From contig CAWBCI010000042.1 in NCBI GenBank assembly GCA_963787195.1, positions 18,990 through 82,989 of the forward strand: 64,000 bases of DNA, in the 5' to 3' direction. This DNA comes from an uncultured Bacteroidales bacterium (GTDB lineage: Bacteria; Bacteroidota; Bacteroidia; Bacteroidales; JAGOPY01). Under the pieces are notes generated by a model, which worked only from the letters and a program-made list of their open reading frames with translations, was not told the origin of the DNA and ran no database searches. Of this stretch, positions 25,467 to 64,000 are shown piece by piece (position 1 is the first letter of the stretch; the number at the start of each line of letters is the position of its first letter). The translations under genes were made by a program, and so were the position numbers.

Positions 25467-25499
25467 TAAAAAGCCCGCGCATTTCTGCGCGGGCTTTTT
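25467..25499 (+). terminator. Rho-independent terminator after tRNA-Gln
   Basis: AGCCCGCGC-ATTTCT-GCGCGGGCT followed by TTTTT. Confidence 0.7.
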
Positions 25500-25687
25500 C
25501 ATTTCAGATTGACGATTTCTGATTTCAGATTGACAAGCTTAGGAGTATATTCCTGTATCGATCTTATACCTTGATCCGAATTCTGCTTTACAAAATTCCG
25601 TAATCAATTTTCAATTGGCCTCATTGTGAAATGCTATTGTGAAATGAAGTTGTATATTTAAGATCCAATTTAAGCGGATCATAAATT

Positions 25688-39790: not shown

Positions 39791-39806
39791 TCCTATAGCC
39801 AATCAG

Positions 39807-43427: not shown

Positions 43428-43560
43428 AATGAAGGAACCTATACCAATACCTGGACCGTTACTGATGACTGCGGTAATATCGTTGCCACGCCATTCACTC
43501 AAACAATCACCATTATTGATACTATTGCCCCGGTATGGACTACGCCAATCGGTTCACTAG

Positions 43561-44226
43561 ATGTTACCCTTGAATGCAGCGATATCTCCGGCCTTGCTGC
43601 AGCACAGGCAATGTTGCCTCTCGGCAAGTGATAATTGTGATCCTTCCCTTACTGCTGTTAAAACAGCAGGTGATTTCATAGCCGACACATGCGCAAACTC
43701 AGGTTCCTATACGAATACTTTCAGCGTTACGGATGATTGCGGTAACATCAGTATTGAATTCACACAAATCATCCATATTGCTGATCGTACAAATCCCATC
43801 ATTACATGTCCGATCAACATAGGTATTGATTGTGATGAGTCTATTGATCCGACAAACACAGGAACTGCCACTGCTACGGATAACTGCGATTCTGCCCCCT
43901 TAATTGAGTATGCTGATGACACTATTGCCGGGGGAGAGTGTTTACAGGCATTTACAATAGAACGTACCTGGACTGCCACCGACGCCTGTGGAAATTCCAG
44001 TTCATGTGTGCAACTTATTTCACTGCAGGATATTTCGCCACCTGTACTCATTGGGGTTCCCGGGGATACCATCGTTTCCTGCGATGAAATTCCGCTGCCT
44101 CCAACCGTAACAGCTACTGATAATTGCGATCCGACCGTAACAGTCACATTTACAGAAATCAATGATGTTTTAAATGGTTGCGGAAGCTATTACCCGCACC
44201 TGGAGCTCTGTCGACGATTGCAATAA
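43561..44226 (+). CDS. Giant surface adhesin, segment 4 (HYR-like modules)
   Basis: ..ASDNCDPSLTAVKTAGDF...TNTFSVTDDCGN.. and ..TATDNCD.. modules. Entered by a +1 shift at about 43623 and left by a shift at about 44182. Confidence 0.7.
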   Translation: MLPLNAAISPALLQHRQCCLSASDNCDPSLTAVKTAGDFIADTCANSGSYTNTFSVTDDCGNISIEFTQIIHIADRTNPIITCPINIGIDCDESIDPTNTGTATATDNCDSAPLIEYADDTIAGGECLQAFTIERTWTATDACGNSSSCVQLISLQDISPPVLIGVPGDTIVSCDEIPLPPTVTATDNCDPTVTVTFTEINDVLNGCGSYYPHLELCRRLQ

Positions 44227-46600: not shown

Positions 46601-46870
46601 TAAATCATAATCAGAATAAAATGAAATTCAGATATAAACAAGTATTAACCAAACATGAATGCCTATGGAACAGAACAAAAATTAAAAAGAGTATTAACTA
46701 AAACGAATGCCTATGGAAAAAAAACGGGTTTTTACGGACCCAATTGAATTTAAATTTTAAAAACTACTAGAATGAATATTTTATTAATAATTAAATCAAA
46801 TTTTCAGCCAGGGAAAAATCCCAGGCCAATTAAAAAATCAATTATTCACTTAATTCTAAATTTTACAACT

Positions 46871-47938
46871 ATGAAAAAATTAATTTTCTTACTCTTTACT
46901 TTGGCAATTTTTGTCAGTGCAAACCAAACATTCGGACAAGCTGTCCCAGGTGACCCACCTCAAGCTGTTAACTGTACCAACGATGCAGCCCACCCAATTG
47001 CCGGTGTGCCTTATGATTACTCTGCAATAATAAGCCCTGCAGGAGGTAGCGCTTATTGGTATGCTACTACTTCTACCACGTTTATGACCGCTGGTGTTCG
47101 TCCGGTTGGTATCGAGGAGATTGCCGGTGGAGCTGTTGTTGCTGTTGGTAATAACTATATGGATAACACTACCGGTGATCTATCACCAACGACTACTACT
47201 ATCACATGGACAACAGAAGGTTTGGCGGCCAATACACCTGCCACTCCTGCTGATCCTCCTACACTTTTTGTGGCTCTTCAATATTCAGCAATGGCTGCTG
47301 GTTGTGCCAATAATGTTAAAGTTTATCCAGTTCGTCCTGTCAATGCATTTGTTGTCGATGTCATGAATATGACACCGGGTGCAACTCAAACTCCTTCAGG
47401 ATATGGTGTTGTGGAAACACAGTGTTTTGATAGTGTTCAATCAGCCGTATGGTCACCTACACCTGCACCTGATGGTGGAATGGTTTATGATTTCGGAACT
47501 AACTATTTGTACTATGAAATGGTAGCTGCAAATTTCACCCATGCATACCTGCCATCGTTCCAGATTTCTAACCTCGATGCAGTTCAAACAGCTGATTTAG
47601 ATTGGGGCTATACTATTGGTACATATGATCATCCTGTAACTGCTGGAGCCACCAACGGAATCTTTCCAAGTCCTGATAGTGTATTTACTACTGAGACAAA
47701 TACATCTGCCGGTGTATCTATTTATGTGAGGTTGACTGTTCATAATGTAAACTTTGAGGGTATAGGACAACTTACTGTTAATTTTGCTGTTGATGCACAA
47801 AATAGCGCTCAGCAGGATGATGTTGATAATGCAACCTGTCTTGTCAATGCAGCTTTTGCTGACAACATTAACCAGACTCTTGATCCGAGACCAGAAGTTA
47901 CAGAAGTTGCTCCTAACGTGTTCCTCCCAGTTAACTAA
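46871..47938 (+). CDS. Secreted 355-aa Thr/Ala/Pro-rich protein, unknown family
   Basis: Signal peptide MKKLIFLLFTLAIFVSANQTFGQ at ATG 46871; the longer ORF from 46772 is unlikely. Codon usage looks enriched in ggt/gct/gtt/act/cca. Confidence 0.6.
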   Translation: MKKLIFLLFTLAIFVSANQTFGQAVPGDPPQAVNCTNDAAHPIAGVPYDYSAIISPAGGSAYWYATTSTTFMTAGVRPVGIEEIAGGAVVAVGNNYMDNTTGDLSPTTTTITWTTEGLAANTPATPADPPTLFVALQYSAMAAGCANNVKVYPVRPVNAFVVDVMNMTPGATQTPSGYGVVETQCFDSVQSAVWSPTPAPDGGMVYDFGTNYLYYEMVAANFTHAYLPSFQISNLDAVQTADLDWGYTIGTYDHPVTAGATNGIFPSPDSVFTTETNTSAGVSIYVRLTVHNVNFEGIGQLTVNFAVDAQNSAQQDDVDNATCLVNAAFADNINQTLDPRPEVTEVAPNVFLPVN

Positions 47939-48622: not shown

Positions 48623-49218
48623 ATGATGGCTGTTGCAGGTCGGATCTGATCCGCCAGCGAATAGGATTCCGGCGAAGGGAACCAGTGTTGCCCCTTATTG
48701 CTCTCAGTGCCCTGGTAAAAATGCTACGATCGCACGATCCAGGAAGTATTAATTCCTTTATCGTATACCGAAAAAATGTTTTCAAAAATTCTCTCGCGAG
48801 GGACTGGCCCACTTATACCTGTTCGGTAAGCAATAACATCAAACAGAACAGGGATAACGACAGATGGAGCACCACCACGGATTTGACGGAAAACGTCGAA
48901 GCGGGAGAGCTATGTCCTGTTGTGAAACCATTTAAGTTGCTGTGTGAGATGCCGGTTGTGGCACAATGCTTAAACACCTGTGAGACTATCTCATCAGGCA
49001 AAATCATACCTTATTATATAATAGTTAAAAACTAAAAAAGAAAAACAAAACCGGGAGGAGACTCCTGAATAGAAATGAATTTAGTGAATAATATACAGAA
49101 CTCTAAATATAAAAATCAGGTTGCGGCCTGCCCGGAAGGCGTAAAACTTCCGGGTAAGCTGCCAACCTTATTAGAGCTGTATATAAGAACTAAAGGAATG
49201 AAAAATCGAAATAAATAA

Positions 49219-49905
49219 ATGATGAAACGGTCCATGCAAATAGTATTACGCCTCATACTGGTATTTATACCGGTAGTGATGGCTTTGGCGCAAGCCAGAG
49301 CTCAGGCTGATACTGTATATGCAGGACAGACTAGTATATGGTCGGTGGTGGAAGTTCCGGGTGATACTTATACCTGGGAACTTTATAATGATGTCACCGG
49401 CATCAACTTCGCAACCGATCCGGGCAATTGTCCGCTTGGGGAAGCTTATTTTGTAGGTGGTGTGAATACAGGCGCCAGCGTGGAAGTCATGTGGCAGGTT
49501 CCGGGCACTTATTTTATTAAGGTAAGGGCCAACAATTCATGCACCGACAATATCAAAGTGGGAAAGATAGTGGTCCTGGAATCCCAGTCAGTTGCAGTCT
49601 TCCTTGATCCGGAAGCTGTTTGTACGGGTGATACGGCCATGCTCACACTTGAAATAACCGGAGGTCTCGGGCCATGGGATGTCACCTTTACTGATGGTGA
49701 CAGTACCTGGACAATTGAAGGTATAACGACCAGTCCTCATACTTTCCAATTGATCCCGACACCAACAATACCGGGGACTTACTCTTATTGGGTCACTTCT
49801 GTCACCAGCGGAAACGGCTTTGTCAACAATACGCCTGGTAATCCGGTGGAACTGATCGTGAATCCAAAACCCGTCACTTCACCAATATATAATTATGCTC
49901 CATAA
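49219..49905 (+). CDS. Small secreted protein sharing an N-terminal domain with the next gene
   Basis: 228 aa; signal peptide ending ..ALAQARAQ. The ..G.TYTWELY....V.W.VPGTYFIKV....C.. pattern parallels residues ~30-110 of the 49919 protein. Confidence 0.6.
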   Translation: MMKRSMQIVLRLILVFIPVVMALAQARAQADTVYAGQTSIWSVVEVPGDTYTWELYNDVTGINFATDPGNCPLGEAYFVGGVNTGASVEVMWQVPGTYFIKVRANNSCTDNIKVGKIVVLESQSVAVFLDPEAVCTGDTAMLTLEITGGLGPWDVTFTDGDSTWTIEGITTSPHTFQLIPTPTIPGTYSYWVTSVTSGNGFVNNTPGNPVELIVNPKPVTSPIYNYAP

Positions 49906-49918
49906 ATTTGAATAAAAT

Positions 49919-52468
49919 ATGATGAACTGGTTCAGAAATATAGGTATTATGATCTTGCTGCTGCTCGCAGGAAGGATGTCCGCACAGGTTCCTGTGCTCG
50001 ACAGTCTTTGTGCCGGAGCTGAGCGCTTCTACCGCGTCGACGGTGAGATGGGATCAACCTACAGCTGGATCCTTACACCACCTGTAGGGCCGGATGAAAT
50101 CCTGCTTTCAGATGCAGATACCCTGCAGGTGATCTGGAACTATGCTCCGGGCATCTATGAACTGAAAGTCGTACAGCATTCCCTGAATGCCTGCGATGCA
50201 GATGCTGTATTCGGCCAGGTCATTATTTTTGAACAAGCAATTGTAGCTGCCGGTCCTGATGACCAGATCTGCCAGGGCAGCGCTTATCAGCTTGTGAATG
50301 CAAGCTCCGAATATACTAGTTCAGTACTTTGGACAAGCAGTGGTGATGGAACTTTCGATAACGACTCAAGCCTGTTTGCGACATACACCCCCGGACCAAA
50401 TGATATAATTGCCGGTACGGTAAATCTCACTATTACAGGTACAGGACTGGGTGTAAATGGTACCTGCGATCCCTCGGTTTCAACTATGATGCTTACAATC
50501 ATACCAGGGGTAACTGCCTATGCAGGTGCTGATGCTACTATATGTGAAGATGCAATCTATACAGTGAACGATGCAACGGCTGAATATGCCTTCAACCTAC
50601 AATGGACCCATAATGGACTCGGCACTTTGGCAAACGATACTACTATTGCCCCAACTTATACTCCTGCTTTTGGAGAGGCTGGCGTGGTGACCTTGTGGTT
50701 GACAGCTACATCTCAGGGTGGAGGTATTTGTCCGGATGCAACAGATTCCTTAGATATCACTATCACACAAGAAATCATGCCGCTGTTCAATGCCATAGGA
50801 CCACTTTGCCAGAATATTCCGGCGCCTGAACTGCCTGATACCTCATTTAATAATCCATCCATAACAGGAACCTGGGTGCCTCCATTCATAGATACATCCG
50901 TACCAGGTACTGTAAACTATGTATTCACCCCTGATGCAGGACAATGTTCTTCGACATATGAAATGGAAATAACAGTGACTTCTGAGATCACCCCGGTATT
51001 TGATACCATAGGGCCTCTATGTCAGAATACTACTGCTCCTGTGCTTCCGAATACATCCATCAATGGTGTTAGCGGATCATGGGTGCCTGCAATAATTGAC
51101 ACCAGCATACCCGGAACATTTACCTATATTTTCAGTCCTGATATTTCTCATCCATGCGCTCTTGAATACAGTATCGATATTACAATTGATCCGGAGATCA
51201 CTCCTGATTTTGACCAGATCGGGCCATTCTGTCTTAACAGCATTGCACCAGATCTTCCTGATACATCTTTAAGTGGAGTCACAGGAACATGGGATCCGGA
51301 TACGATCAACACCTCTGTCGCTGGTAATTTCAATTTTGAATTCACACCGGATGCAGGGCAGTGCGCACTTCCTGTTACAATAGAAATAGAAATAACAGAT
51401 GAAATAAGTCCGGATTTTGCCCAGATTGGTCCGCTTTGCCAGAACAGCATACCACCGGCTCTGCCCGATTCTTCTTTAAACGGTATTGCTGGCGTATGGA
51501 GCCCGGATACAATTAACACCTCTGTTGCAGGATATTTCATTTATGAATTTACACCTGACCCAGGGCAGTGTGCTCAATCTTTATCAATACAATTAGAGAT
51601 TAGCGAAAAGACAGCTCCGGAATTTACCGAGATTGGCCCGCTATGTATGTACAGCATTGCTCCTATTCTTCCTGACACATCTATCGAAGGCATTTCAGGA
51701 ACATGGGTTCCTGCGCTTATCAATACAGACATTGCCGGCACCTTCAGTTTTGAGTTCACTCCTGACAGTGGACAGTGCGCTTTGGATTACACTATGGAAA
51801 TAGAGATCAACTCATTGCCGGTTGTTTTTGCAGGAATTGATCAAATCATTCCTAACGGTACCAGTACCACCATTGGAGATGCAACTGCAACAGGCAACGG
51901 TACCCTGACTTATAGCTGGATGCCTGATACCCTCTTAGTCGATCCGACAGTTTTGAACCCAACGACTGTCAACCTTGGCGAAACCACTACATTCATTCTT
52001 ACAGTCAGTGACGAAAATGGATGTGAAAATAGTGATGAGATAACTATAAACATTACCGGAGGAGCTTTGGCCGTTAATCCTGTCGCTTCATCCGGTGAAA
52101 TTTGTGAAGGTGATAACATACAGTTCTATGCTTCTGCGAGCGGTGGCTCAGGTGACTATACCTATACATGGACATCGGATCCACCGGGCTACAGTTCGGA
52201 TGAAGAAAACCCGGTATTGATACCTACTATTGGTACGACCTATATTATTGAAGTCGGTGACGGATACAGTACCATACAAGACTCTATCAATATCATTATT
52301 CACCCATTACCGGTATTCGAATGCCCTACTTACGGACCTGTCTGCGAAGGCAGCAATATGATAATATTCGCCCAACAGGGTGTTTTCAAATATGAAAATA
52401 AAGTAATAAGTGAGTTCAATCCTGATACTTGCAGGCAACTATACCATTACTTATATAGAGACCAATGA
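49919..52468 (+). CDS. Large T9SS cargo protein, N-terminal segment (frame broken at about 52440)
   Basis: Signal peptide MMNWFRNIGIMILLLLAGRMSAQ. Six ~65-aa repeats (EI.P.F..IGPLCQN..AP.LPDTS..G..GTW.P..I.TS..G...Y.FTPD.GQC). Continues in frame 0 as ..FNPDT | LAGNYTITYIETNEFGCSDSC.. Confidence 0.75.
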   Translation: MMNWFRNIGIMILLLLAGRMSAQVPVLDSLCAGAERFYRVDGEMGSTYSWILTPPVGPDEILLSDADTLQVIWNYAPGIYELKVVQHSLNACDADAVFGQVIIFEQAIVAAGPDDQICQGSAYQLVNASSEYTSSVLWTSSGDGTFDNDSSLFATYTPGPNDIIAGTVNLTITGTGLGVNGTCDPSVSTMMLTIIPGVTAYAGADATICEDAIYTVNDATAEYAFNLQWTHNGLGTLANDTTIAPTYTPAFGEAGVVTLWLTATSQGGGICPDATDSLDITITQEIMPLFNAIGPLCQNIPAPELPDTSFNNPSITGTWVPPFIDTSVPGTVNYVFTPDAGQCSSTYEMEITVTSEITPVFDTIGPLCQNTTAPVLPNTSINGVSGSWVPAIIDTSIPGTFTYIFSPDISHPCALEYSIDITIDPEITPDFDQIGPFCLNSIAPDLPDTSLSGVTGTWDPDTINTSVAGNFNFEFTPDAGQCALPVTIEIEITDEISPDFAQIGPLCQNSIPPALPDSSLNGIAGVWSPDTINTSVAGYFIYEFTPDPGQCAQSLSIQLEISEKTAPEFTEIGPLCMYSIAPILPDTSIEGISGTWVPALINTDIAGTFSFEFTPDSGQCALDYTMEIEINSLPVVFAGIDQIIPNGTSTTIGDATATGNGTLTYSWMPDTLLVDPTVLNPTTVNLGETTTFILTVSDENGCENSDEITINITGGALAVNPVASSGEICEGDNIQFYASASGGSGDYTYTWTSDPPGYSSDEENPVLIPTIGTTYIIEVGDGYSTIQDSINIIIHPLPVFECPTYGPVCEGSNMIIFAQQGVFKYENKVISEFNPDTCRQLYHYLYRDQ

Positions 52469-53918
52469 ATTTGGATGTTCCGACTCCTGCCAATTTGTGA
52501 TCCTGGTGAATTCGCCACCAGTCGTATATGCAGGGGCCGATCAAACCATACTCAGCGGAAGCAGCACCACCATTGGTGATGCCACTGCATCGGGTAGCTT
52601 GCCGCTAACATATAGCTGGACTCCTGCCGGGCTCTTGCTTGATCCAACGGTTCTGAACCCAACTACAATAAACCTTGACGATACCACCACCTTTACTTTC
52701 ACGGTCACTGATGCCTATGGTTGTGAAAGCAGCGACGAAGTAATCATAAATGTCGAAACTGTCGTGGTTGACAGCCTGCATGCAATTACAGAATCCGATC
52801 AGCTTTGCCTTGGACATGATGCCAGCATTCCTATCAAAGTAAATAAATTCGTATCGGTTTCATCATTCAAGCTGACACTGAGTTATAATGTCGATAAGCT
52901 GACATGCGTGGGCTTCACTGACTTAATTGATGATCTGGACGACGGTTTTACAGCCACAATTGACACTGTTGCCGGTTTGATCACACTTGAGTGGAATTCC
53001 AATGTTCCGGTTACATTCCCATCTATACAATCTATCCTAAACCTGGTATTTGAAACAAAAGATTCCGGAGAGGGTCAATTGGAATGGTATACCAATGCCA
53101 CGGAAAGTTATTTCTACGACATGAATGGCAATCCTATTCCGGCTGACTTCTTTGCAGGAACGGTCGTAATTTATAGTCCTCCGGAAATCTTTATGGATAA
53201 TTCAAAGGATGTTTGTCTTGGGCAGCCTGTTGATATTAATGGCATAGCTCAGGGTGTAAATTGGCCTTTGACATATGAGTGGATTTATCCCAACGGCCTG
53301 GTCTATGCCGACCATCCGAATTTCGATAGTGTTACCTTTAACGATGCCGGAACCTATACACTGCTGGTTACCGACAGTCTGGGCTGCACCGACCAGAAAA
53401 GCATGACACTGAATGTTTACCAGAACCCGGTAGCCTTATTCCATGGGATTGATACCCTTGAAGTACAACCCGGGTATGTCCTGGAAGCCGGATCAGGCCT
53501 GGCCTCATATCTCTGGAATACTACAGAAACAACGGAGAGTATTACTATCCATTCGGAAGGCCGCTACACGGTTGAAATGACATCACTGGCCGGATGTACC
53601 GGTATAGATTCGGTATATATACTTCTCTCACTGAGATGCTTTGATATACCAAGCGCATTCTCCCCCAACGGTGACGGGATAAATGATATTTTCTTAGCCA
53701 AAACCATCTGTCCGATGAGGTATTTCCATATGCTGATATACAACCGCTGGGGAGAGAAATTATTTGAATCAAACAATATAGCCGATGGCTGGGATGGTAC
53801 CAAAAAAGGCCTTGCCTGCCCGGGAGATAGCTATGTATTCGTGGTTACTTATGAAATTGATGAAGCAGGAGTACATAAGAAGAATGTGGTAAAGGGTATA
53901 TTGATATTAGTGAAGTAA
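52410..53918 (+). CDS. Large T9SS cargo protein, C-terminal segment with type B (gliding motility-associated) C-terminal domain
   Basis: C-terminus CFDIPSAFSPNGDGINDIFL....YNRWGEKLFES......WDGT..G...P...YVF.. matches the CHU_C / T9SS type B sorting-domain pattern. Confidence 0.8.
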   Translation: MSSILILAGNYTITYIETNEFGCSDSCQFVILVNSPPVVYAGADQTILSGSSTTIGDATASGSLPLTYSWTPAGLLLDPTVLNPTTINLDDTTTFTFTVTDAYGCESSDEVIINVETVVVDSLHAITESDQLCLGHDASIPIKVNKFVSVSSFKLTLSYNVDKLTCVGFTDLIDDLDDGFTATIDTVAGLITLEWNSNVPVTFPSIQSILNLVFETKDSGEGQLEWYTNATESYFYDMNGNPIPADFFAGTVVIYSPPEIFMDNSKDVCLGQPVDINGIAQGVNWPLTYEWIYPNGLVYADHPNFDSVTFNDAGTYTLLVTDSLGCTDQKSMTLNVYQNPVALFHGIDTLEVQPGYVLEAGSGLASYLWNTTETTESITIHSEGRYTVEMTSLAGCTGIDSVYILLSLRCFDIPSAFSPNGDGINDIFLAKTICPMRYFHMLIYNRWGEKLFESNNIADGWDGTKKGLACPGDSYVFVVTYEIDEAGVHKKNVVKGILILVK

Positions 53919-53921
53919 AAA

Positions 53922-55064
53922 ATGAAAAAGGAAATAAGACATATAATCAATCATAATACGTTCATCATGAACACTACAAGATTTGCCACGTCTATACGGG
54001 ATACCGGCAGGCGTGATGCGGTAAGTGTCATCTCTGATAAGATGAACAGCCCTGACAAGCCTCATATTAATTGGGGATTTATCTTAGTCAGGTTGCTAAT
54101 TTTATTGGGTATCGTTATCCTGTTCAATATAAGCGGGAAGGCCCAGGATCAAGAATTTTCCCAGTTCTACGCCAATCCCCTCTACCTGAATCCGGCTCTT
54201 GCAGGAGCTGAAAATTATAACCGGGCAGTGGTCAATTACCGTAACCAATGGCCCGGCATGGGCAAAGGCTTTGTTACATATAATGCCTCTTATGACCAGG
54301 GCATAGATAAGCTCCATGGAGGAATAGGTGTATTATTGAATGTTGATAATGCCGGAAACGGCTTACTCACAACCACCCAGGCATCCCTGATTTATGCCTA
54401 TACCCTGAATATCTCCGACGTCACCTTTATTAATATGGCCATGCAGGGGACATTCTACCAGAGATCCTTAAACTGGGATATGTTACGCTTTGGCGACCAG
54501 ATTGACCTGCTTCAGAAATATGATCTGCCCACAGGAGAAACCCGACCGGTAAGCACCTCTATAATGACGCCGGATTTTTCAGCCGGAGTCGCCTTTGGCT
54601 GGAAAAGCGCTATTTACGGTGGGCTTGCCGTAAATCATCTGACTGAACCTAATTTGTCTTTCAGCGGTCAGAATAATAACCTGCCGATGAAAATCACCGG
54701 GCATTTTGGGGCGAATCTAAACCTGCAGGGAGGAAGTATGTTGTTCGACCCGGTATTTTATCTTTCAACCAATATCCTTTATCAACAGCAAGGCAATTTC
54801 CACCAGGTGAACCTCGGACTTTATTTCGTCCGCATTCCGATTGTTCTCGGGGCCTGGTTCAGGCATAACTTCGAAAATCCAGATGCTATCATTGCTCTGG
54901 CTGGAATAACCTATAAAAGCATTAAAATCGGCTATAGTTACGATATTACCATGTCACAGATCAAAAGCTATACCGGAGGGGCACATGAAATTTCTGTCGC
55001 ATGGCAGTTCAACTACAAAGAAAGGTTAAGGAGGATATATCGGTTAAATGCTCCTGGATTTTAA
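53922..55064 (+). CDS. PorP/SprF family T9SS membrane protein
   Basis: QDQEFSQFYANPLYLNPALAG near the mature N-terminus and ..TGGAHEISVAWQF.. near the C-terminus. It lies directly downstream of a type B CTD cargo. The likely start is the internal ATG at 54042. Confidence 0.85.
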   Translation: MKKEIRHIINHNTFIMNTTRFATSIRDTGRRDAVSVISDKMNSPDKPHINWGFILVRLLILLGIVILFNISGKAQDQEFSQFYANPLYLNPALAGAENYNRAVVNYRNQWPGMGKGFVTYNASYDQGIDKLHGGIGVLLNVDNAGNGLLTTTQASLIYAYTLNISDVTFINMAMQGTFYQRSLNWDMLRFGDQIDLLQKYDLPTGETRPVSTSIMTPDFSAGVAFGWKSAIYGGLAVNHLTEPNLSFSGQNNNLPMKITGHFGANLNLQGGSMLFDPVFYLSTNILYQQQGNFHQVNLGLYFVRIPIVLGAWFRHNFENPDAIIALAGITYKSIKIGYSYDITMSQIKSYTGGAHEISVAWQFNYKERLRRIYRLNAPGF

Positions 55065-55255
55065 ATCCTGAAAACTCTTGAAAATGAAGGTATAAATAAT
55101 TTGGAAATCCGGATAATGCCGGTCAATTTTATTGCCGGTTAAACGCCAGGTATGAATAAATCTACTATATCAGGTTTTAAATGTTCCTTTACCCAAAGAA
55201 CTTAGGGCTATGGATACCTTTTTAGAGAGACTGGGAAGATATAAAGACGCCGGGT
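55065..55255 (+). repeat. Repeat family R1, copy 1 (native flank downstream of intact porP/sprF)
   Basis: Shares ..CTGAAAACTC.TGAAAATGA.GGTATAAATAATTTGGAAATCCGGATAA.GCC.GT.AA.TTTATTG.C.GTTAA.C.CC.GGT.. with 58095-58265, 59300-59495 and 60347-60540. Confidence 0.8.
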
Positions 55256-55477
55256 AGCTATACTGAAACCTTAGCAACAAGGTTGAGGAGTGTAATAGAT
55301 ATAAAGATTATTCTAATAAAATTAACAAAGTGACTCTTGAAGTACCTTCTACTATTAGTAATTGTGATTATTAATGATTCTGGTGAAGCAACTATGGGTA
55401 ATAAAGACGATAATCATACTTTACATGCTTATAAACCGATAAACACTATTTATAGGTGATAGAACTTATAAAATTTC

Positions 55478-55485
55478 TATATTTG
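55478..55485 (+). promoter_or_regulatory. Candidate -7 box (TATATTTG) for satD-like gene
   Basis: Matches TAnnTTTG, 18 nt upstream of ATG 55503. Confidence 0.45.
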
Positions 55486-55502
55486 CTAGAAATAATACTA
55501 CT

Positions 55503-56192
55503 ATGATGAAAGCTGTTATATCTGGGGATATTGTTTCATTTACTAGTTTAAGTGTTGCTGGAAGGGAACTAGTTGAGGAAGCAATTAAAGAACTTATAAA
55601 GGAATTAAGAGAAAAATTAGGTACTTATTCACGAACTATAAAGGGTGATTATCTTGAATGTGTCATACCTAATCCTGAACAAGCACTTCGTGTAGCACTT
55701 GCAATTAAAAGTTTCATAAAATCAATTCCAATTGATGAAACACCTCTATACAAAACGAATAAAAGAGTCAAATTATTTAAGACCTATGGCATTCGTCTTG
55801 CAATTGGATATGGGGAGCTTAGTCGCTTTAATCCTAGTGAAGGAATAATTGATGGAGAAGCTATCTACCTATCAGGAAGGACAATAAATGAATTTTCCAC
55901 TTATAATAAAGAACGAATTGTAATTAAAAATACATTATTCTTTAACTCACGTGACAATTTACTTAACAAGCAAATTGAACCGCTCATAGCATTATTGGAT
56001 GTTTTAATAAGCAAAGCCACATCCAAGCAATGTAAGGTACTATATTTGAAGCTAATGGATAATAACGAAGAAGCTATCGCTTCAAAATTAAAAATATCCC
56101 AATCCGTAGTCAATCAACATTCTACAAGTATAGGATGGAATGCTATTGAAAAAGCGGTAACTTTTTTTAATGAATTAATTAAAAATAATTGA
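55503..56192 (+). CDS. SatD-like protein: degenerate class III nucleotidyl-cyclase-homology domain fused to a C-terminal sigma70-region-4/LuxR-like HTH
   Basis: 229 aa. KAVISGDIVSFTSL, RTIKGDYLECVI, IRLAIGYGEL and DGEAIYLSGRTINE align with the cyclase motifs FaDIvGFT, KtiGDa.ma.f, lRiGihtG and GdtVNlAsR. The C-terminal KQCKVLYLKLMDNNEEAIASKLKISQSVVNQH is HTH-like. Confidence 0.65.
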   Translation: MMKAVISGDIVSFTSLSVAGRELVEEAIKELIKELREKLGTYSRTIKGDYLECVIPNPEQALRVALAIKSFIKSIPIDETPLYKTNKRVKLFKTYGIRLAIGYGELSRFNPSEGIIDGEAIYLSGRTINEFSTYNKERIVIKNTLFFNSRDNLLNKQIEPLIALLDVLISKATSKQCKVLYLKLMDNNEEAIASKLKISQSVVNQHSTSIGWNAIEKAVTFFNELIKNN

Positions 56193-56193
56193 A

Positions 56194-56901
56194 ATGGACC
56201 TCAATCAATTATTGATTTTACAATTAATCGCTCATTTGATTTCTGATTTTACTTTTCAACCAGAAAGAATGTCAAATGATAAAAACGATTTAGGTTTTAA
56301 AAGTAAATTATTGAAATGGCATATACTTATAACATTTATCACGGCATGGTTATTTTCATTTCAATTTAATTTTGTATACGGTGCATTTGCTATTGCTATT
56401 TTACATGGGGTTGAAGACGGAATTAAAAAATACATTAAAGACAATATTATAATCGGAAGATATTCATTCTTCATAGACCAAATAATTCATTTAACTATTA
56501 TAATGCTAATAGTCTTACTATATAACAACTACTTTCAATTAAATCCGATATTTAATGTCACACTGGATGTGAAAACTTTATTGATAGTTGGGTGTTATAT
56601 TTTCAGTACCAAGCCTTCCAATATTTTTATAAAGGAGACATTCACAGCCTTTAAAATACAGGCAAGTACTTTGGGAAATGACGACCTTCCTAATGCTGGA
56701 AAACTAATAGGTATTATTGAGCGCTTTTTAGTACTCACATTTGTAATTCTAAATCAATTTGAAGCAGTTGGATTTCTCATCGCAGCAAAATCTATTTTAC
56801 GATTTAAGGACGACAATACAATAAAAACGGAATATGTTCTAATTGGTACAATGTTAAGCTTTGGAATTGCAATTGCCTTGGGAATAGTTATAAATCTTTA
56901 A
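56194..56901 (+). CDS. DUF3307 (SatE-like) polytopic membrane protein
   Basis: 235 aa; about 7 TM helices; start is 1 nt after the satD-like stop. SatD/DUF3307 is a conserved gene pair, named from the S. mutans sat locus. Confidence 0.65.
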   Translation: MDLNQLLILQLIAHLISDFTFQPERMSNDKNDLGFKSKLLKWHILITFITAWLFSFQFNFVYGAFAIAILHGVEDGIKKYIKDNIIIGRYSFFIDQIIHLTIIMLIVLLYNNYFQLNPIFNVTLDVKTLLIVGCYIFSTKPSNIFIKETFTAFKIQASTLGNDDLPNAGKLIGIIERFLVLTFVILNQFEAVGFLIAAKSILRFKDDNTIKTEYVLIGTMLSFGIAIALGIVINL

Positions 56902-57047
56902 GGGAATATAAAATTAGGCGCAATTGCTAATAAAAGCTATATGCAATGCGTGTTTCAGAGGGTATTTCATCAGCAGTTCTTCCTTGCAACACGTCCAATT
57001 CGTCTTTGACGATTGGCAAAAAAAGTAAATTTGAAAAAGCGAATTGG

Positions 57048-57079
57048 CTCAGTGCTCCGCTTCAGCATTTGTGCTGAAA
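57048..57079 (+). repeat. Repeat family C core, copy 1 (hairpin TCAGCA-TTTG-TGCTGA)
   Basis: CTCAGTGCTCCGCTTCAGCATTTGTGCTGAAA versus 60109-60140 TTCAGTACTCCTCCTCAGCATTTGTGCTGAAA. Weaker similarity extends ~100 nt upstream (56945-57047 versus 60050-60108). Confidence 0.7.
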
Positions 57080-57106
57080 AAAAATAAATATTTTAAAATT
57101 CACCTT

Positions 57107-58039
57107 ATGCCAAATACTAAAAATGTTTCATCCTATAAAACAGGATATATTGATGTTCCGGACGGACATAAACTCTATTTCGAATTATACGGGAACCCCA
57201 GGGGCATCCCGGTTTTGTTCCTACACGGGGGGCCCGGTGCGGGTTTTTCGGATAAGGACAAGCAGTTTTTCAATAAGAGAAGGTACAATGTCATTTTCTT
57301 CGACCAGAGAGGATCCTCCAGGAGCATTCCTTTTGGTTCGATTCAGAATAATACCACGCAGGATCTTGTGAAAGATATCAGTATCGTTTTAGATCACTTA
57401 AATTTTGATAAAGTTTATGTTTTCGGGGGTTCCTGGGGTAGTACGCTTGCATTGGTCTATGCTATCCATCATCCCGGGCGGGTGCTGGGTTTGATTTTAA
57501 GAGGCATCTGGCTGGCCAACAAATACGGCCTGGACCATTATATCCGGGGCGGGATCAGGGAATTCTTCCCGGATGTATGGGAAAGGTTTGCAAAGTTGGT
57601 TAAGGAGGGTGAAAATCCGGTGGATTATTATTTTGACAAGATGATGTCGGGAGATGAAAAGACCAGTGATAAGTATGCCTATGAATGGGCCTATTATGAA
57701 ATGTCATTTTATACCATCAATAAAATTTCAAATACGGATGAGAACGTCAGGTCTTTTTCATATAAATCCCTGGCCATTTTAGAGGCCTATTACATTAAGA
57801 ATAATTGTTTTTTGCCTGAAGATTTTATCATGAAGAATGTGGATAAGATCAAAGATATCAAAACCACCATAGTCCAGGGACGCTACGATTTTATTTGTCC
57901 GCCGGTACAGGCTTTCAGGCTCCATTCCGGACTGAATAATTCCAGCCTGAACATAGTAAATGCCGGACATTCATCCTCCGATATTGAAATTAAAAAGGGC
58001 CTGATAAGAGAGCTTAAACGCATTACCACGGGGAGATAA
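57107..58039 (+). CDS. pip: Proline iminopeptidase (alpha/beta hydrolase, S33)
   Basis: YFELYGNPRGIPVLFLHGGPG, nucleophile elbow GGSWGSTLAL. Start assigned to ATG 57107 (MPNTKN..). Confidence 0.85.
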   Translation: MPNTKNVSSYKTGYIDVPDGHKLYFELYGNPRGIPVLFLHGGPGAGFSDKDKQFFNKRRYNVIFFDQRGSSRSIPFGSIQNNTTQDLVKDISIVLDHLNFDKVYVFGGSWGSTLALVYAIHHPGRVLGLILRGIWLANKYGLDHYIRGGIREFFPDVWERFAKLVKEGENPVDYYFDKMMSGDEKTSDKYAYEWAYYEMSFYTINKISNTDENVRSFSYKSLAILEAYYIKNNCFLPEDFIMKNVDKIKDIKTTIVQGRYDFICPPVQAFRLHSGLNNSSLNIVNAGHSSSDIEIKKGLIRELKRITTGR

Positions 58040-58265
58040 GATTTCAGATTTCAGATAAGGGATCCGTCAAATCAGAACTTTCTTAAGAAAAGCCGGAAAA
58101 CTCCTGAAAATGAGGGTATAAATAATTTGGAAATCCGGATAAAGCCTGTTAAATTTATTGTCAGTTAAGCACCGGGTTTGAAGAAATCTACTCTGTTAGG
58201 AATTGCAGATTCTTGAAGCCTTCTTATTAAAGAGGTATAGCCTTAGCTTTACGGATGGATAGGGA
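58040..58265 (+). repeat. Repeat family R1, copy 2 (starts at the pip stop codon)
   Basis: ATTTCAGATTTCAGATAAGGGATCCGTCAAATCAGAACTTTCTTAAGAAAAGCCGG..AAAACTCCTGAAAATGAGGGTATAAATAATTTGGAAATCCGGATAAAGCC.. aligns to copies 1, 3 and 4. Confidence 0.8.
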
Positions 58266-58435
58266 GAATATATTGCTGCCGGATTGAGATACACAATCTT
58301 AGGCCTTATTCATAAATTAAGATTCAAACTTTAAGTGCAATTATCATAAGTTCTCAAAAAATAAAACAATCCATTGAAAGACAAACAATTGTAAATATAT
58401 ATATTCAATTTTTTACCCTTTTAAAAGGAGCTTTT

Positions 58436-59038
58436 ATGAAATATCTGACAATCTTGCTTATTGCTATGTGCCTTACCTTTCAGGCGCAATCTCAAAATGA
58501 AATTCATCTTCTAAACAGCGATTCAACACTGACTTTTAAAAAAATAAGATTTTCAAAAGAATCAATTAGGATTCTCCCAATGGAAAAAGGAAAAGCAAGT
58601 ATTAGTTTTTCAAATAAGGAGATTTATTACGTAAATATGAAAGGTATTCATTATGGGCCGGCGGCAAAAGGATATTTTAAAGTAAAGGATGTATTGTTTC
58701 AAAATGAAATTTCTAAACAGGCTGCTTTGGATGCTTGCAGGAATTACACGAATTATAAAAGCGCTGCAACCGGAACCTTTTGTACTACGTTTTTCACAGG
58801 TCCTATTTTAGGTTTAATCCCAGCTATATCAACATCATCAACCCCACCAAAACTTTCAAATCTGAATATACCTGATACTAAGTTAAAGGATGTCGAATCA
58901 TATATTACAAGTTACAGAATGCAAGCTAAAAATATGAAGTCGAGCCGTGTTTGGAACAATTATGCCTCTGGTATTATTTATGCAATCTTAATAAGCGTCA
59001 CTGCAAACCTTATAATAATTATGTCTTCAGCAGGATAA
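58436..59038 (+). CDS. Hypothetical secreted/membrane protein (signal peptide, two C-terminal TM segments)
   Basis: 200-aa ORF; MKYLTILLIAMCLTFQAQS signal. No family recognised. Confidence 0.5.
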   Translation: MKYLTILLIAMCLTFQAQSQNEIHLLNSDSTLTFKKIRFSKESIRILPMEKGKASISFSNKEIYYVNMKGIHYGPAAKGYFKVKDVLFQNEISKQAALDACRNYTNYKSAATGTFCTTFFTGPILGLIPAISTSSTPPKLSNLNIPDTKLKDVESYITSYRMQAKNMKSSRVWNNYASGIIYAILISVTANLIIIMSSAG

Positions 59039-59206
59039 TAATTTAAATCTCACCTTTTTTATTATTCATGGTTTGAATGAAATTAGATCTTCCATTGACT
59101 ATAATCTAAATTAAATTTAAGGTAGATGTTAAGGAGAAGGAACTGAAATTTACAGATGCATATTGACATTTGAGTTGAAACAATAGTAAGTCCCGGACTG
59201 TGGCTG

Positions 59207-59495
59207 CCGGCGGGGCCCATAGAATTTCAGATTTCAGATTTCAGATTTTCGAGATCAGTCATATCAGAACTTTCCTGAGAAAACCCGGAATCCGCTTAAA
59301 TCAGGATACTGAAAACTCCAGAAAATGAGGGCGTTAATAATTTGGAAATCGGGATAAAGTATATTAAATTTATTGCTGGTTAAGCGCTGGGTTAGAAAAA
59401 TCCTCCACATCTAATTTTAAAGGTCTCTCTTGGCCAAAAGGACGATGGGCTGTGGATACCTTTATAGAGAGGCAAGGAAGAAATAAAGACAACAT
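59207..59495 (+). repeat. Repeat family R1, copy 3 (includes a short porP/sprF 3'-end relic)
   Basis: Begins CCGGCGGGGCCCATAGAATTTCAG.., the counterpart of ACCGGAGGGGCACATGAAATTTCTG (TGGAHEIS) in the intact gene. About 92% identical to copy 4. Confidence 0.85.
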
Positions 59496-59553
59496 GGTTG
59501 ATATAGACAAACATTAGAAGCAAGCAAAAACATATTCACCTAAATCTAAATTT

Positions 59554-60033
59554 ATGACAAATATTCTCAATGTCGACATAGATTATCCAAAGCCGTATGT
59601 GGTTGAAAGTTTTAAAAATGGAAGGTTTATAAAAACCCCGATTCATTCTGGAACGCCCTTGTACAGGATTGTATCTAAAGAAGACCAAATTAATAATGTG
59701 AGAGGTAATAATTTTGTTAGCGGAGAATTTTGGTTTGACCATGATACATTTTTAAAGATCTCTTCGGAAGTTAACTATGAGGTACCATCAAAATCCATTA
59801 CAGACTTGTCACGACATGGTTTAGCTATAACTTCGAAATTTAGTATGACAGCTGACTCCATTATTGGTGTTACCTTATTGCAAGAGGTATATGCATGGAA
59901 GGGTACGGCAGCCAAGCAATTGGAGACATACAAAAATGGAATAAAACAATTATATCACGGGGGATTGACACAGCTCTGGATACCTAACTTAAACGAAAAA
60001 ATCGTCAGGTATAGATTTTTTCACACAATTTAG
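59554..60033 (+). CDS. Hypothetical 159-aa protein
   Basis: ATG ORF with coding-like composition. No signal peptide and no family recognised. Confidence 0.45.
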   Translation: MTNILNVDIDYPKPYVVESFKNGRFIKTPIHSGTPLYRIVSKEDQINNVRGNNFVSGEFWFDHDTFLKISSEVNYEVPSKSITDLSRHGLAITSKFSMTADSIIGVTLLQEVYAWKGTAAKQLETYKNGIKQLYHGGLTQLWIPNLNEKIVRYRFFHTI

Positions 60034-60108
60034 GTAGCCTGCAGTTAACAGCACATCTGCAATAGGCGGGGTTTCGTGCTCCAAAGACAGTTTTGTGGTT
60101 AGAGAAAG

Positions 60109-60140
60109 TTCAGTACTCCTCCTCAGCATTTGTGCTGAAA
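60109..60140 (+). repeat. Repeat family C core, copy 2
   Basis: See 57048-57079. Here it abuts the 5' truncation point of the porP/sprF relic. Confidence 0.7.
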
Positions 60141-60346
60141 GCTCCACCCATCGCAAATCCGCAAACATTTACCCTTGTCTGGAAAAACTTTAATAAGTTT
60201 AAAATCGGCTATAATTTCGATATTACCCTGTTAAAGATTAAAAGTTAACCGGCGGGCCCCATAGAATTTCAGATTTGAATTCAGATTTCAGATTTTCGAG
60301 ATCAGTCATATCAGAACTTTCCTGAGAAAACCCGGAATCCGCTTAA
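60141..60346 (+). pseudogene. 5'-truncated porP/sprF paralog relic (last ~65 codons, with internal stops)
   Basis: ..NPQTFTLVWKNFNKFKIGYNFDITLLKIKS*PAGPHRIS.. parallels ..NPDAIIALAGITYKSIKIGYSYDITMSQIKSYTGGAHEIS.. of 53922..55064. Confidence 0.7.
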
Positions 60347-60540
60347 ATCAGAATCCTGAAATCCCCTGAAAATGAGGGCATAAATAATTTGGAAATCGGG
60401 ATAAAGTATATTAAATTTATTGCTGGTTAAGCGCCGGGTTAGAAAAATCTTCCACATCTAATTTTAAAGGTCTCTCTTGGCCAAAAGGACGATGGGCTAT
60501 GGATACCTTCTCAGAGAGACAAGTAAGATATCAAGACACC
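60249..60540 (+). repeat. Repeat family R1, copy 4
   Basis: About 92% identical to 59207-59495 over ~290 bp. Confidence 0.85.
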
Positions 60541-60675
60541 TTATAGATTTATATAATCGTTGTAAAGCATTGACACATTGAATAGCATTTGCTCTACCTA
60601 AGAATAAAATCACTTTTCAAATTATCATATAAAAATAATATGTATCCCTATTTATTTATCTAAAAATTAACCCTT

Positions 60676-62166
60676 ATGAGAAAATTAAGATTTCTTTTTC
60701 CGGCAGCATTATTTAGCATTAGTTTGCTGTCTTTTGCAGGTCCCAATGAAGATTTAGTGAATGCCTGTAAACAAGGTGATTTGACCGCTGCTACTAAAGC
60801 CATTGATGCCGGGGCTGATGTTAATGCATTAGACGCAAGTGGAAATACACCAATTTGCAGTGCTTTTTTCTGGCCTGAAATAACGAATTTACTTCTGGAC
60901 AAAGGTGCAGATCCGAATGGAGGAAATTATCCGGCTTTGATTCAGGCATGTGCCGGATACTCAACCGAAGTGGTGAAAATGTTGCTTGATGCAGGGGCAG
61001 ATCCTAATAAACCAGGAATTACCGATCCCGCAGATACATACAGAGGCCTTATTGAGGTAGAAAAAGCAAAAGGGAAGAAAGCTAATAAAGCAATGATAAA
61101 GGCATGGGAAAGTGCCGTTGCCAGCGCCAAATCTACTACCACCTATCCGGCCAATGCATTTCTTGTTGGGACAAACCATACTCCTGCATTGAAAATGATG
61201 ATAGAAAAAGGAATGAAACTTGAATTTGATGATGGCAGCAATGCCCTGCAAACTTTTGTGACCTATTGTAATTCTAGAGAAATGCGCAAAGAGGCCTGGG
61301 CCCAAAGTGCAGCTGGCTATGCCAGATTTGGTTTTAAAGTGCCTGAGTGGGTGTCAAACCTTCCTGACGATAGAAATGGTACGGCTGTTGAAATGCTTGA
61401 TCTGCTTCTTTCAAAAAACATTGATATAAATAAATTAGATGCAAACGGATTTACCCCTCTCTGTGCAACACTTAAAGGAACAATTTTAGCTGTTGAAAAC
61501 ACCAGGTACGATAAAATAAATGTTTCTAAAAGGCTAATTGAAAAAGGTGCTGATGTTAATTTGTCTTCGACAATGACAGGTTCTAATTGGACATATTATC
61601 CAATATGTCTTGCGACAGAGATCGGAGATTTATCTCTTATGAAATTACTCGTTGAAAAAGGAGCTAATCTGGATAATACGGTTAGAGCCAGTACAGTTAC
61701 GCTATTTTCCCAATATGCTTCAATTATGGGAAATGGAGGCTCTGGATATACACCTGTAATTATAGCCATTCTTAAAGGCAATGCTGACGCAGTTAACTTT
61801 CTGATTGACCAGGGTGCAGATCTGACAATTGGTGTGGAAGGATTTGCCACACTTGAATCGGGTAAGGAAGGACTTAAATGTTTAACTATAGTTAAGAACA
61901 AATCTGCTATATATTGGGCAATCGAAAAGGGTGACGATGCAATATTTAATGCCGTTGGCGCAAAATTATCCGGAAAGAAACTTCCTGAGTTTTCAGTGAG
62001 ACAAATGTCAGATGTTGGAGATGCAAAGGATAATACTATGACAGAATCATGGCATTGTGTGAAGTTCAAAAAAGCAAGCTATCCTCCCTATGAATATGCA
62101 GAACTGATAGGTAATGAATCCGCTGTTAAATACTTATCAGGAGTAAAATTAGAGTTAAGAAAATAA
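60676..62166 (+). CDS. Secreted ankyrin-repeat protein
   Basis: 496 aa; signal peptide MRKLRFLFPAALFSISLLSFAG; several ANK units (DASGNTPICSA..LLLDKGADPN, DANGFTPLCATL, LIEKGADVN, LVEKGANLD, LIDQGADL). Confidence 0.75.
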   Translation: MRKLRFLFPAALFSISLLSFAGPNEDLVNACKQGDLTAATKAIDAGADVNALDASGNTPICSAFFWPEITNLLLDKGADPNGGNYPALIQACAGYSTEVVKMLLDAGADPNKPGITDPADTYRGLIEVEKAKGKKANKAMIKAWESAVASAKSTTTYPANAFLVGTNHTPALKMMIEKGMKLEFDDGSNALQTFVTYCNSREMRKEAWAQSAAGYARFGFKVPEWVSNLPDDRNGTAVEMLDLLLSKNIDINKLDANGFTPLCATLKGTILAVENTRYDKINVSKRLIEKGADVNLSSTMTGSNWTYYPICLATEIGDLSLMKLLVEKGANLDNTVRASTVTLFSQYASIMGNGGSGYTPVIIAILKGNADAVNFLIDQGADLTIGVEGFATLESGKEGLKCLTIVKNKSAIYWAIEKGDDAIFNAVGAKLSGKKLPEFSVRQMSDVGDAKDNTMTESWHCVKFKKASYPPYEYAELIGNESAVKYLSGVKLELRK

Positions 62167-62203
62167 ATCTAAAAATATTTACTTAACTATTATATTTATC
62201 CAG

Positions 62204-62578
62204 AATTTCGGTCCCGAAAAAAATTGAGCCAATCTTTACACGACGGGACGCCTTGAATATTTGATTTTGCAAGAGGCACTGAATGCACTTTCCTCTGACT
62301 TGAGCTGATTGTGCCGCTGCTACGCAGCTCTTAATTTTATTTTTACTACGAAATTCTATATACATGTCGCAGCTACACAGCTCCTACTTTAAATAGTTCT
62401 GAAAACGAATTATTAACGTGATAATGAATGTGTTTTTAAATGCCACATTGGAATCGATTTTGAAAATGTGAGCGCCGTAGGCGCGACATGTTTATAGCAA
62501 TGATGGGAGAAAGAATTTTCAGGAGCTCCGTAGGACTGGTATGATATGAACAGCATGAATTACTGATGCTGTAATTAT
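62204..62578 (+). repeat. Repeat family B, copy 2 (long form)
   Basis: 62204-62365 is ~90% identical to 63837-64000. The core 62289-62578 aligns to the reverse complement of 22937-23293. Confidence 0.85.
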
Positions 62579-62607
62579 AAAAGCTAAAGCTTAGATTTGT
62601 ATAACAG

Positions 62608-62641
62608 GAGCCGTATGACGGGAGACTATCACCTACGATTC
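62608..62641 (+). mobile_element. Group II intron domain V-like 34-mer (degenerate relic)
   Basis: GAGCCGTATGACGGGAGACTATCACCTACGATTC versus yeast ai5-gamma D5 GAGCCGUAUGCGAUGAAAGUCGCACGUACGGUUC: same 34-nt length, AGC triad, GNRA loop (GAGA), AC bulge, 24/34 identities. Three of 14 helix pairs are mismatched. Confidence 0.4.
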
Positions 62642-62750
62642 TGTGAGAGGCCTGGGCTGAAATTACCCTTGCCCGCTCGATACAAACCCTTATGGGTAAT
62701 TTTTCTAAAACGATAATATACTAAAAATCAAAATTGTAACTAATCAAAAA

Positions 62751-63581: not shown

Positions 63582-63836
63582 AAACTGCATGTAATTATAA
63601 AGCATTCTTACAGCATGCAATGCAGAGTCAGAATGAGAGGTTGACGGAACCTGGCAATCTATATGGGGAATAATAAATTTTTAGTGATTAGTAGTGGGGG
63701 AGCTGGGTAAGTTCCGGCAGGGAAAAGTGGCAGTATTTCAATTTGATTCTCTTAATTTTCATTCTTCACAAGGGTGATAACTTCAGCTTTCCTTAGATAA
63801 ACTTCAAAATATATGCTTATCTAATACATCAATCCC

Positions 63837-64000
63837 AATTTCGGTCCAGAAAAAAATTGAGCCAATCATTACACGACGGGATGCCTTGAATAGTTGATTT
63901 TGCAAGAGGCACGGAATGCACTTTCCTCTAACTTAAGCTAATTGTGCCGCTGCTACGCAGCTCTTGATTTTATTTTTACTACGAAATTCTATATACATGT
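63837..64000 (+). repeat. Repeat family B, copy 3 (long form, truncated by the window end)
   Basis: About 90% identical to 62204-62365, same orientation. With copy 2 it brackets the aspartic protease gene. Confidence 0.85.

Follow-up and report, generated by a model that had tools for sequence, protein, structure and literature searches.

Direct repeats derived from a porP/sprF gene end among accessory genes of an uncultured Bacteroidales bacterium

Introduction

Behind an intact porP/sprF gene of a type IX secretion system (T9SS) in an uncultured Bacteroidales bacterium, a short module without any sizeable gene of its own recurs on the same strand, each time ahead of a different gene. The locus lies in a 64,000-nt stretch of DNA, here termed the window (GenBank assembly GCA_963787195.1, contig CAWBCI010000042.1, positions 18,990 to 82,989). 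The first 33 kb of the window consists of housekeeping genes, which indicates a chromosomal context. The original prediction, made from the letters of the window alone, described this layout as a cassette-like array or a homologous-recombination hot spot. What, then, is the module, and how did it come to stand between unrelated genes? The account favoured here, with moderate confidence, is that the copies are left over from duplicated porP units and lie in an accessory islet, prone to recombination, that starts at the porP stop codon.

Copies of the module

Exactly four copies in the window were returned by direct-repeat detection, by BLASTN and by a profile made from the copies themselves. 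The number and the common orientation predicted were thus confirmed, with refined limits:

c1, 55065-55281, plus strand: spacer immediately 3' of the porP stop codon; core at 55070-55151
c2, 58034-58200, plus strand: porP-like decayed tail with heptamer repeats at 58034-58095; core at 58096-58177
c3, 59207-59524, plus strand: starts in a porP-tail relic at the codons equivalent to TGGAHE; core at 59311-59392
c4, 60249-60551, plus strand: preceded by a porP 3'-end relic; core at 60358-60439

Blastn E-values for the copies ranged from 1e-26 to 1e-119, and each copy scored 175-202 bits with nhmmer (c1, 194.8; c4, 201.5). The closest pair is c3 and c4, with 92.07% identity over 290 nt, matching the earlier estimate of about 92% over about 290 bp. 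By blastn, c1 is 77.8% identical to c4 (189 nt), 74% to c3 (220 nt) and 84% to c2 (112 nt), and c2 is 72-73% identical to c3 and c4 (175-181 nt). The right side of c2 is truncated, having been lost or replaced, and only weak similarity extends past 58200. The patchy divergence between c3 and c4 was considered as a sign of gene conversion and dropped, as it was not significant (P = 0.07).

Common to the four copies is a gap-free core of 82 nt, with 78-93% identity in each pair by segment-wise comparison. It contains invariant runs such as AATAATTTGGAAATC, the module having invariant runs of 15 nt, and in the alignment CTGAAAA(C/T) appears twice at its start, about 11 nt apart. Outside the core, the flanks share 40-76% identity, with indels. 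No open reading frame (ORF) of at least 60 aa was found within any copy, as had been claimed; the longest has 48 aa and occurs on the minus strand of c3 and c4 only. The claim that a different gene lies behind each copy also held, the gap between copy and gene being 30-236 nt.

The junctions recur in short contigs of an independent assembly (run ERR11523667), which match 56809-59272 (100%), 59422-60319 (99.7%) and 60469-62375 (99.9%). These contigs stop inside c3 and c4, as near-identical repeats would lead one to expect. One Logan contig spans c2 intact at 100% identity, and another reproduces the junction of c4 with the ankyrin-repeat gene behind it. The copies also help to explain assembly breaks, since short-read contigs stop inside them.

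Derivation from the porP/sprF gene end

Two features bear on the origin of the module:

53922-55064, plus strand: intact porP/sprF gene, 380 aa (Pfam PF11751, E 8.7e-56)
60176-60248, plus strand: porP/sprF 3'-end relic that extends c4 upstream and carries an in-frame stop (blastn and tblastn)

The homology between the c1 side and the c4 region begins within porP, at 54898. From there, positions 54898-55251 (the porP tail and c1) are colinear with the c4 region at 60176-60540 (70.7% over 372 nt, E 2e-36), and it is in the last 167 nt of porP (54898-55064) that the relic tails of c2 to c4 have their coding counterpart. Within this span, 60179-60270 aligns with porP coding positions 54901-54994 (blastn, 78.7% over 94 nt, E 2e-15). 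The tblastn translation of the relic, FKIGYNFDITLLKIKS*PAGPIEFQI, corresponds to YKSIKIGYSYDITMSQIKSYTGGAHEISV in porP and is interrupted by the in-frame stop. The relic therefore combines similarity to the C-terminal part of PF11751, at both the nucleotide and the translated level, with a disrupted coding sequence. It is also 78.6% identical to the porP gene of a syntenic relative, contig L092.

In c3, the frame of the ORF at 59200-59328 reads GGAHRIS, then a heptamer expansion, then IRLN, similar to GGAHEIS..YRLNAPGF at the porP C-terminus. A decayed tail with a (GATTTCA)n tract is common to c2, c3 and c4. Identity is 67-98% among these tails but falls to 39-47% against the actual coding tail ahead of c1. 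Given the colinearity of c4 with the porP end and the decayed tail common to c2 to c4, the module is the last 70-170 nt of porP/sprF together with about 200 nt of downstream spacer, and not an autonomous element. One copy (c1) stands with the intact gene and three (c2 to c4) as remnants. A reading of the module as an independent element was accordingly not upheld.

The divergence of c1 from c3 and c4 is similar across the parts of the module: 72% identity in the far relic (c1 versus c4 only), 78-80% in the core and 76% in the right part. Neutral decay of one old duplication would give such a pattern.

The GATTTCA heptamer tracts lie at 22651-22693, 58040-58056, 59222-59252 and 60265-60295, that is, in the 5' part of c2 to c4 and in other spacers, with weaker blastn matches of 17-38 nt at 25497-25534 and 27414-27430. 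In c3, the expansion preserves the reading frame of the porP tail.

Distribution of the module and syntenic relatives

Among the conditions that were to refute the original prediction were a module occurring only as the ordinary 3' flank of intact porP/sprF genes and a region collinear in all relatives. Neither was observed. A four-copy nhmmer profile found the module in none of 81 porP loci, comprising the locus of the closest Logan porP homologue and 80 metagenome loci, and both nhmmer and BLAST gave no match in three further, closer porP loci (L091 to L093). A search with the core pattern AATAATTTGGAAATCNGGATAA gave one match, judged to be due to chance, in 185,579 species genomes, and none in the JGI metagenome collection or in viral contigs; a second core pattern likewise had no match in viral contigs. 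As far as these collections reach, the module is specific to the source organism, and it is not the usual 3' flank of porP. Duplication of the porP 3' end as a general habit was also rejected, as self-BLAST of 78 porP loci revealed only two unrelated small repeats, in two loci.

Two of the closer contigs, L092 and L093, are syntenic with 48785-55063 at about 69-84% nucleotide identity, over the upstream genes, the cargo gene whose C-terminal domain (CTD) is of type B, and porP. In both, the match ends at 55063, exactly at the porP stop codon, and unrelated genes lie downstream. The region 3' of the porP stop is lineage-specific. The spacer behind porP in L092 itself contains a relic of the CHU_C type-B CTD of a paralogous cargo gene (4575-4660), which reads GNGLKDIFKAVPACPLTYFRMLIFNRRG as against GDGLNDVFQAVSICPITYFRMLIFNRWG in the cargo gene, and a corresponding relic is present in L093 (3011-3096). 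Eroded pieces of T9SS cargo/porP units therefore lie downstream of porP in a relative too, which fits a history of duplication and erosion at the locus.

Genes between the copies

The GC content falls from 42.8% before position 55065 to 35.2% after it. The following genes lie between and behind the copies, with GC3 standing for the GC content at third codon positions:

55503-56192, plus strand: SatD-like gene (Pfam match; GC3 19.6%)
56194-56901, plus strand: DUF3307 gene (Pfam match; GC3 24.6%)
57107-58039, plus strand: prolyl aminopeptidase gene pip (TIGR01249, E 4e-90, 302 bits, above cut-off; GC3 48.9%)
58436-59038, plus strand: gene for a 200-aa predicted membrane or secreted protein (GC3 27.4%)
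59515-60051, plus strand: 537-nt unit with the 159-aa gene (coding sequence 59554-60033), bounded by a match to contig L085
60676-62166, plus strand: gene for a 496-aa ankyrin-repeat protein behind c4 (Pfam Ank_2, E 2.8e-26; GC3 28.4%)

The GC3 of the 159-aa gene is 35.0% and that of an aspartyl-protease-like protein further downstream is 20.9%. Compared with 44-50% in the core genes and porP, most of the genes between the copies, at 20-35%, look foreign. The exception is pip, which by its GC3 of 48.9% looks native, and whose stop codon abuts c2. The 200-aa protein had no Pfam, NCBIfam or PADLOC match. An interpretation of the cargo as defence genes was rejected, as PADLOC gave only generic ankyrin and protease matches.

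A separate 31-nt repeat (90% identity) occurs in the pip leader (57049-57079) and between the 159-aa gene and the porP relic (60110-60140). It can form a hairpin of 6-7 bp, (T)TCAGCA TTTG TGCTGA(A).

The 159-aa gene as a discrete unit

The 159-aa gene is the one cargo gene that could be traced to other contexts, with homologues of 58-86% amino-acid identity. Contig L085 matches 59515-60051 only, at 90.5% nucleotide identity, so that the shared span consists of the gene with 39 nt upstream and 18 nt downstream, between unrelated flanks. Four other contigs (L086 to L089) match just the gene and at most 31 nt upstream of it. In all five contigs the contexts are unrelated, and the module is absent from the vicinity of the homologue in each. 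The left edge of the unit (59515) meets the right end of c3 (59524, judged against c1) with an overlap of about 7 nt, AAGCAAG, and this join resembles a microhomology junction more than a conserved recombination site.

In two of these contigs (L086, 8379-16091; L087, 9391-10480), the homologues lie beside an AAA_15/AAA_21 ATPase and near ThiF/E2/multi-ubiquitin, HipA, M78 peptidase and SLFN/AlbA genes, a neighbourhood that looks like a defence island. A phage origin was rejected, the gene having no match in viral contigs. The protein family carries no annotation, no relative was found in the PDB, and the AlphaFold model (pLDDT 36) is unusable. In L085, a short degenerate group II intron (274-1291) ends exactly at the left boundary of the unit.

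Proposed origin of the array

On the favoured account, copies c2 to c4 would be the leftovers of porP units that were duplicated and whose coding parts have decayed or been deleted. The stretch behind porP would be a low-GC accessory islet, in which small foreign genes have been inserted or exchanged through homologous and illegitimate (microhomology) recombination, and the direct repeats would be by-products of these events. Lying on one strand and 1-3 kb apart, the copies would be ready substrates for further RecA-type recombination, with loss, tandem gain or Campbell-type re-insertion of a gene between two copies as possible outcomes. A dedicated recombinase or recombination site would not be needed. 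Of the two alternatives in the original prediction, the hot spot of homologous recombination is the one that fits the data.

The finding is a case of direct repeats that consist of gene remnants and lie at a flexible islet's border. Such repeats are partial 3'-end duplicates of a flanking gene, left behind when a duplicate decays or when an insertion occurs beside a conserved gene. As in other such islets, the variable low-GC region is bordered by an intact gene, truncated copies of that gene's 3' end and flank lie downstream on the same strand, foreign genes occupy the space between the copies, and synteny breaks at the gene end. Unlike in typical gene-remnant repeats, the repeated piece here reaches about 375 nt with its relic (c4) and includes a non-coding spacer of about 200 nt; moreover, four copies fall within 5.5 kb, with no integrase or tRNA and with one native-like gene inside.

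Several points weigh against this account. The core is free of indels in four copies at about 80% identity and the flanks are not, which weakly suggests constraint (rough P of about 0.05). Three relics have kept the tail and the spacer and lost the rest of porP, which would take three deletions or else the copying of a relic that is non-coding. Neither mechanism is demonstrated, and no simple one would copy such a relic and at the same time place a new gene between copies. None of the intervening genes is seen in duplicate, so simple unequal crossing-over alone is insufficient for the layout. The array continues past the window, and a recombinase may lie just beyond 64 kb. Finally, with four copies in one genome and no strain comparison, recombination between the copies is something we infer rather than observe, as is the order of events.

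The module as a possible regulatory region

Among the alternatives, a cis-regulatory module survives best, although it remains the less favoured, minor possibility. In that case proteins would bind the 82-nt core, be it as an operator or as a promoter for an alternative sigma factor, or the core would be an RNA processing site. Selection would retain it for driving or tuning the gene next downstream, and copies would persist since foreign genes landing behind one become expressed. Consistent with this, the gap-free core with its invariant runs is the best conserved part of the module, CTGAAAA(C/T) is doubled at its start, and each copy lies upstream of the next gene, on that gene's strand. Of the genes behind the copies, those for the 200-aa, 159-aa and ankyrin proteins lack a canonical TAnnTTTG box (the Bacteroidota -7 box) of their own. 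However, this box is absent from all four copies as well, and the SatD-like gene and pip have boxes outside the modules, that of the SatD-like gene 25 nt ahead of its start. Sigma-70 promoter-like and terminator-like sites were not enriched in the modules, and no ECF-type (extracytoplasmic function) -35/-10 pair was seen by eye. The distance from the core end to the next start codon varies widely, from about 350 nt (c1) through about 260 (c2) and 240 (c4) to about 160 nt (c3). The absence of the module from all relatives searched further means that the core shows no conservation beyond the source genome.

RNA structure was not found either. The modules had no Rfam match, whether at the gathering score or at E-values up to 5. 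Folds of the core on both strands were no more stable than those of shuffled sequence (z -1.10 to +1.70), and none of the whole modules was more stable than its shuffles (z +0.97, +0.10, +1.04 and -1.64 for the four copies). Over all folds, RNA and DNA on both strands, z ranged from -1.64 to +1.70. The alifold covariation term of -0.25 kcal/mol comes from four sequences and has no statistical power.

The module as a possible recombination site

That small integrative units have accreted in tandem at the porP 3' end, with the copies as their attachment sites and an outside tyrosine or serine recombinase acting in trans, is quite unlikely. On such a model, c1 would be an attL-like site and the other three copies junctions or attR-like sites, by analogy with islands that enter the 3' end of a gene and supply a replacement tail. 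Cases of tandem accretion at gene 3' ends include e14 and phage 21 in icd and the CIME-type (cis-mobilizable element) arrays. As these are generally described, an intact target gene is followed by displaced partial 3' ends in direct orientation, with foreign DNA between them. The present locus is similar in having intact porP at one end and partial 3'-end copies downstream on the same strand (including the relic stretch 60176-60350), in the mostly foreign composition of the DNA between the copies, and in the break of synteny exactly at the porP stop codon. The module is also AT-rich, unstructured and non-coding, with short direct repeats, 15-nt invariant runs and a length typical of attP, and the recombinase gene could sit in the part of the array that extends beyond the window end.

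The locus differs from tandem accretion in its mostly single-gene units of 1-3 kb, in left boundaries that vary (about -166, -92 and roughly -70 nt relative to the porP stop) and in that no identical crossover core was demonstrated. The copies differ from one another by 7-22%. No integrase, transposase or recombinase domain was found in 40 ORFs of the window scanned against Pfam, as the original prediction had stated for the window. The scan covered ORFs of at least 120 aa that look like real genes; four ORFs at 33.6-44.2 kb, antisense-overlapping ORFs and those shorter than 120 aa were left out. Further points against attachment sites are the five other contexts in which the 159-aa gene stands without the module, its microhomology join to c3, and the native-like pip between c1 and c2. 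Absence of the module from viral, genome and metagenome collections would be unexpected for the site of a mobile element.

It is very doubtful that the modules are recombination sites of an undescribed Bacteroidota gene-capture system. Such a system would add single accessory genes successively behind the porP/sprF 3' end, by means of a recombinase beyond the window or of host homologous recombination on excised 'module plus gene' circles, each event regenerating the module. One known system to compare is the integron. Its attC sites are imperfect hairpins, 55-140 nt long, whose R''/R' and L''/L' boxes pair. Clusters of attC sites without an integrase are known as CALINs (IntegronFinder; PMC4889954, PMC9024848). 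As in integron arrays and CALINs, a non-coding site alternates on one strand with single, unrelated and mostly unannotated genes, with no integrase nearby, and a heptamer resembling GTTRRRY (GTTAAGC or GTTAAAC) lies in the module core.

Unlike in integrons, a conserved imperfect hairpin is absent. Bottom-strand DNA folds of 143 nt ending at GTTAAGC gave z of -0.79, 0.13, 0.00 and -1.56. An inverted repeat of 7+7 nt with a 4-nt bulge is present in c3 and c4 only, with GCTTAA/TTAAGC on its inner and not its outer side; c2 has no inverted-repeat arm owing to a 23-nt gap, and neither c1 nor c2 has a matching inverse core site. The module is 170-320 nt long and comes from the tail of a protein-coding gene, and no integron integrase (IntI), which would lie with attI next to an array, was found among the 40 scanned ORFs. 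The unit with the 159-aa gene shares just 18 nt past its stop codon with its closest relative, and thus carries no attC. The integron cassette reading was therefore rejected, for want of the hairpin that defines attC and for the way in which the one traceable cassette behaves. The cassette part of the original prediction, taken as a system with a recombination site of its own, was not supported: no recombinase was found in the window, a hairpin, terminal inverted repeats and a conserved left boundary are missing, the module never stands beside the 159-aa gene elsewhere, and pip lies inside the array. A new cassette system is a rather remote prospect. A miniature inverted-repeat transposable element (MITE) or other non-autonomous transposon was also rejected, as no terminal inverted repeats of at least 10 nt were found at the ends of any copy and the ends differ between copies.

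Polymorphic toxin loci offer another comparison, with their orphan-module arrays (the cdiA-CT/cdiI and Rhs orphans). As these are usually described, a fragment of the constant part of the main gene is repeated ahead of different genes, as it is here, and could allow swapping by homologous recombination. In contrast, the fragment here is the extreme 3' tail with a non-coding spacer, so that no new chimeric protein would result from recombination, and the downstream genes have no toxin or immunity domains.

The module as a possible small RNA or protein gene

It is highly improbable that the module is a gene for a small RNA or for some small protein, for instance the ATG-started 48-aa ORF on the minus strand of c3 (59264-59410) and c4 (60311-60457): a stop-free frame does cross the core on both strands in all four copies, and the plus-frame segment ENEGINNLEI shows synonymous or conservative changes, but c1 and c2 lack a start codon in both frames, plus-frame substitutions number 6, 6 and 10 at codon positions 1, 2 and 3 (a hand count on the four-copy alignment, with no clear coding signal), and Rfam matches, fold stability and a terminator are wanting. 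A hidden small protein was rejected in particular because the minus-frame alignment had no homologue among 5.8e9 clustered proteins (word-indexed search) or 1.84e9 representatives (exhaustive HMMER search).

Other repeats in the window

The gene-repeat-gene pattern continues to the end of the window with a different repeat family (62172-62588 and 63797-64000), termed here module B:

22927-23293, minus strand; 62172-62588; 63797-64000: module B, a repeat of about 400 nt with two inverted arms of about 100 nt

Its arms carry GC-rich hairpins such as GAGCGCCGTAGGCGCGAC, and the repeat as such folds strongly (z = -3.75). The isoleucyl- and glutaminyl-tRNA synthetase genes have one copy in the spacer that separates them, and the other two copies lie behind the ankyrin gene and behind the aspartyl-protease-like gene. 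Module B resembles a dispersed element of a foldback or MITE-like type. At 62606-62681 on the plus strand, upstream of the aspartyl-protease-like gene, a remnant of domains V-VI of a group II intron was found (RF00029, E 2e-5, 38 bits where the gathering score is 40); no reverse transcriptase ORF lies nearby.

A perfect hairpin of 43-46 nt, AAAACTCGTACCCCGACTATAGTCGGGGTACGAGTTTT, occurs in two copies of 98% identity (7154-7204 and 9988-10033); these resemble terminators and border the pth / L25 / prs block as well as a tRNA gene. At 33595-46600, a very large, repetitive and cargo-like region of about 13 kb contains 261-nt tandem repeats and HYR-like domains and is broken up into several ORFs. 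The glutaminyl-tRNA synthetase gene is split into overlapping ORFs (23466-23969 and 23966-25168), and a T9SS cargo gene is split likewise (49919-52468 and 52410-53918). Since the former gene is essential, its frameshift points to indel errors of the assembly rather than to pseudogenes. The 388-aa ORF (46772-47938) that comes after the repetitive region was considered as a second PorP and rejected (hhalign probability 0.1%).

Significance

For annotation, these copies are to be treated as porP remnants rather than as new elements. Should strains be found to gain or lose 'module plus gene' units precisely, this would point to a new cassette-type mechanism in Bacteroidota. If the more ordinary account of duplicated and decayed porP units is true, the locus would be a small-scale example of how a gene end and its spacer become repeated homology tracts that border an accessory islet, and it would show T9SS cargo/porP units in the course of duplicating and eroding.

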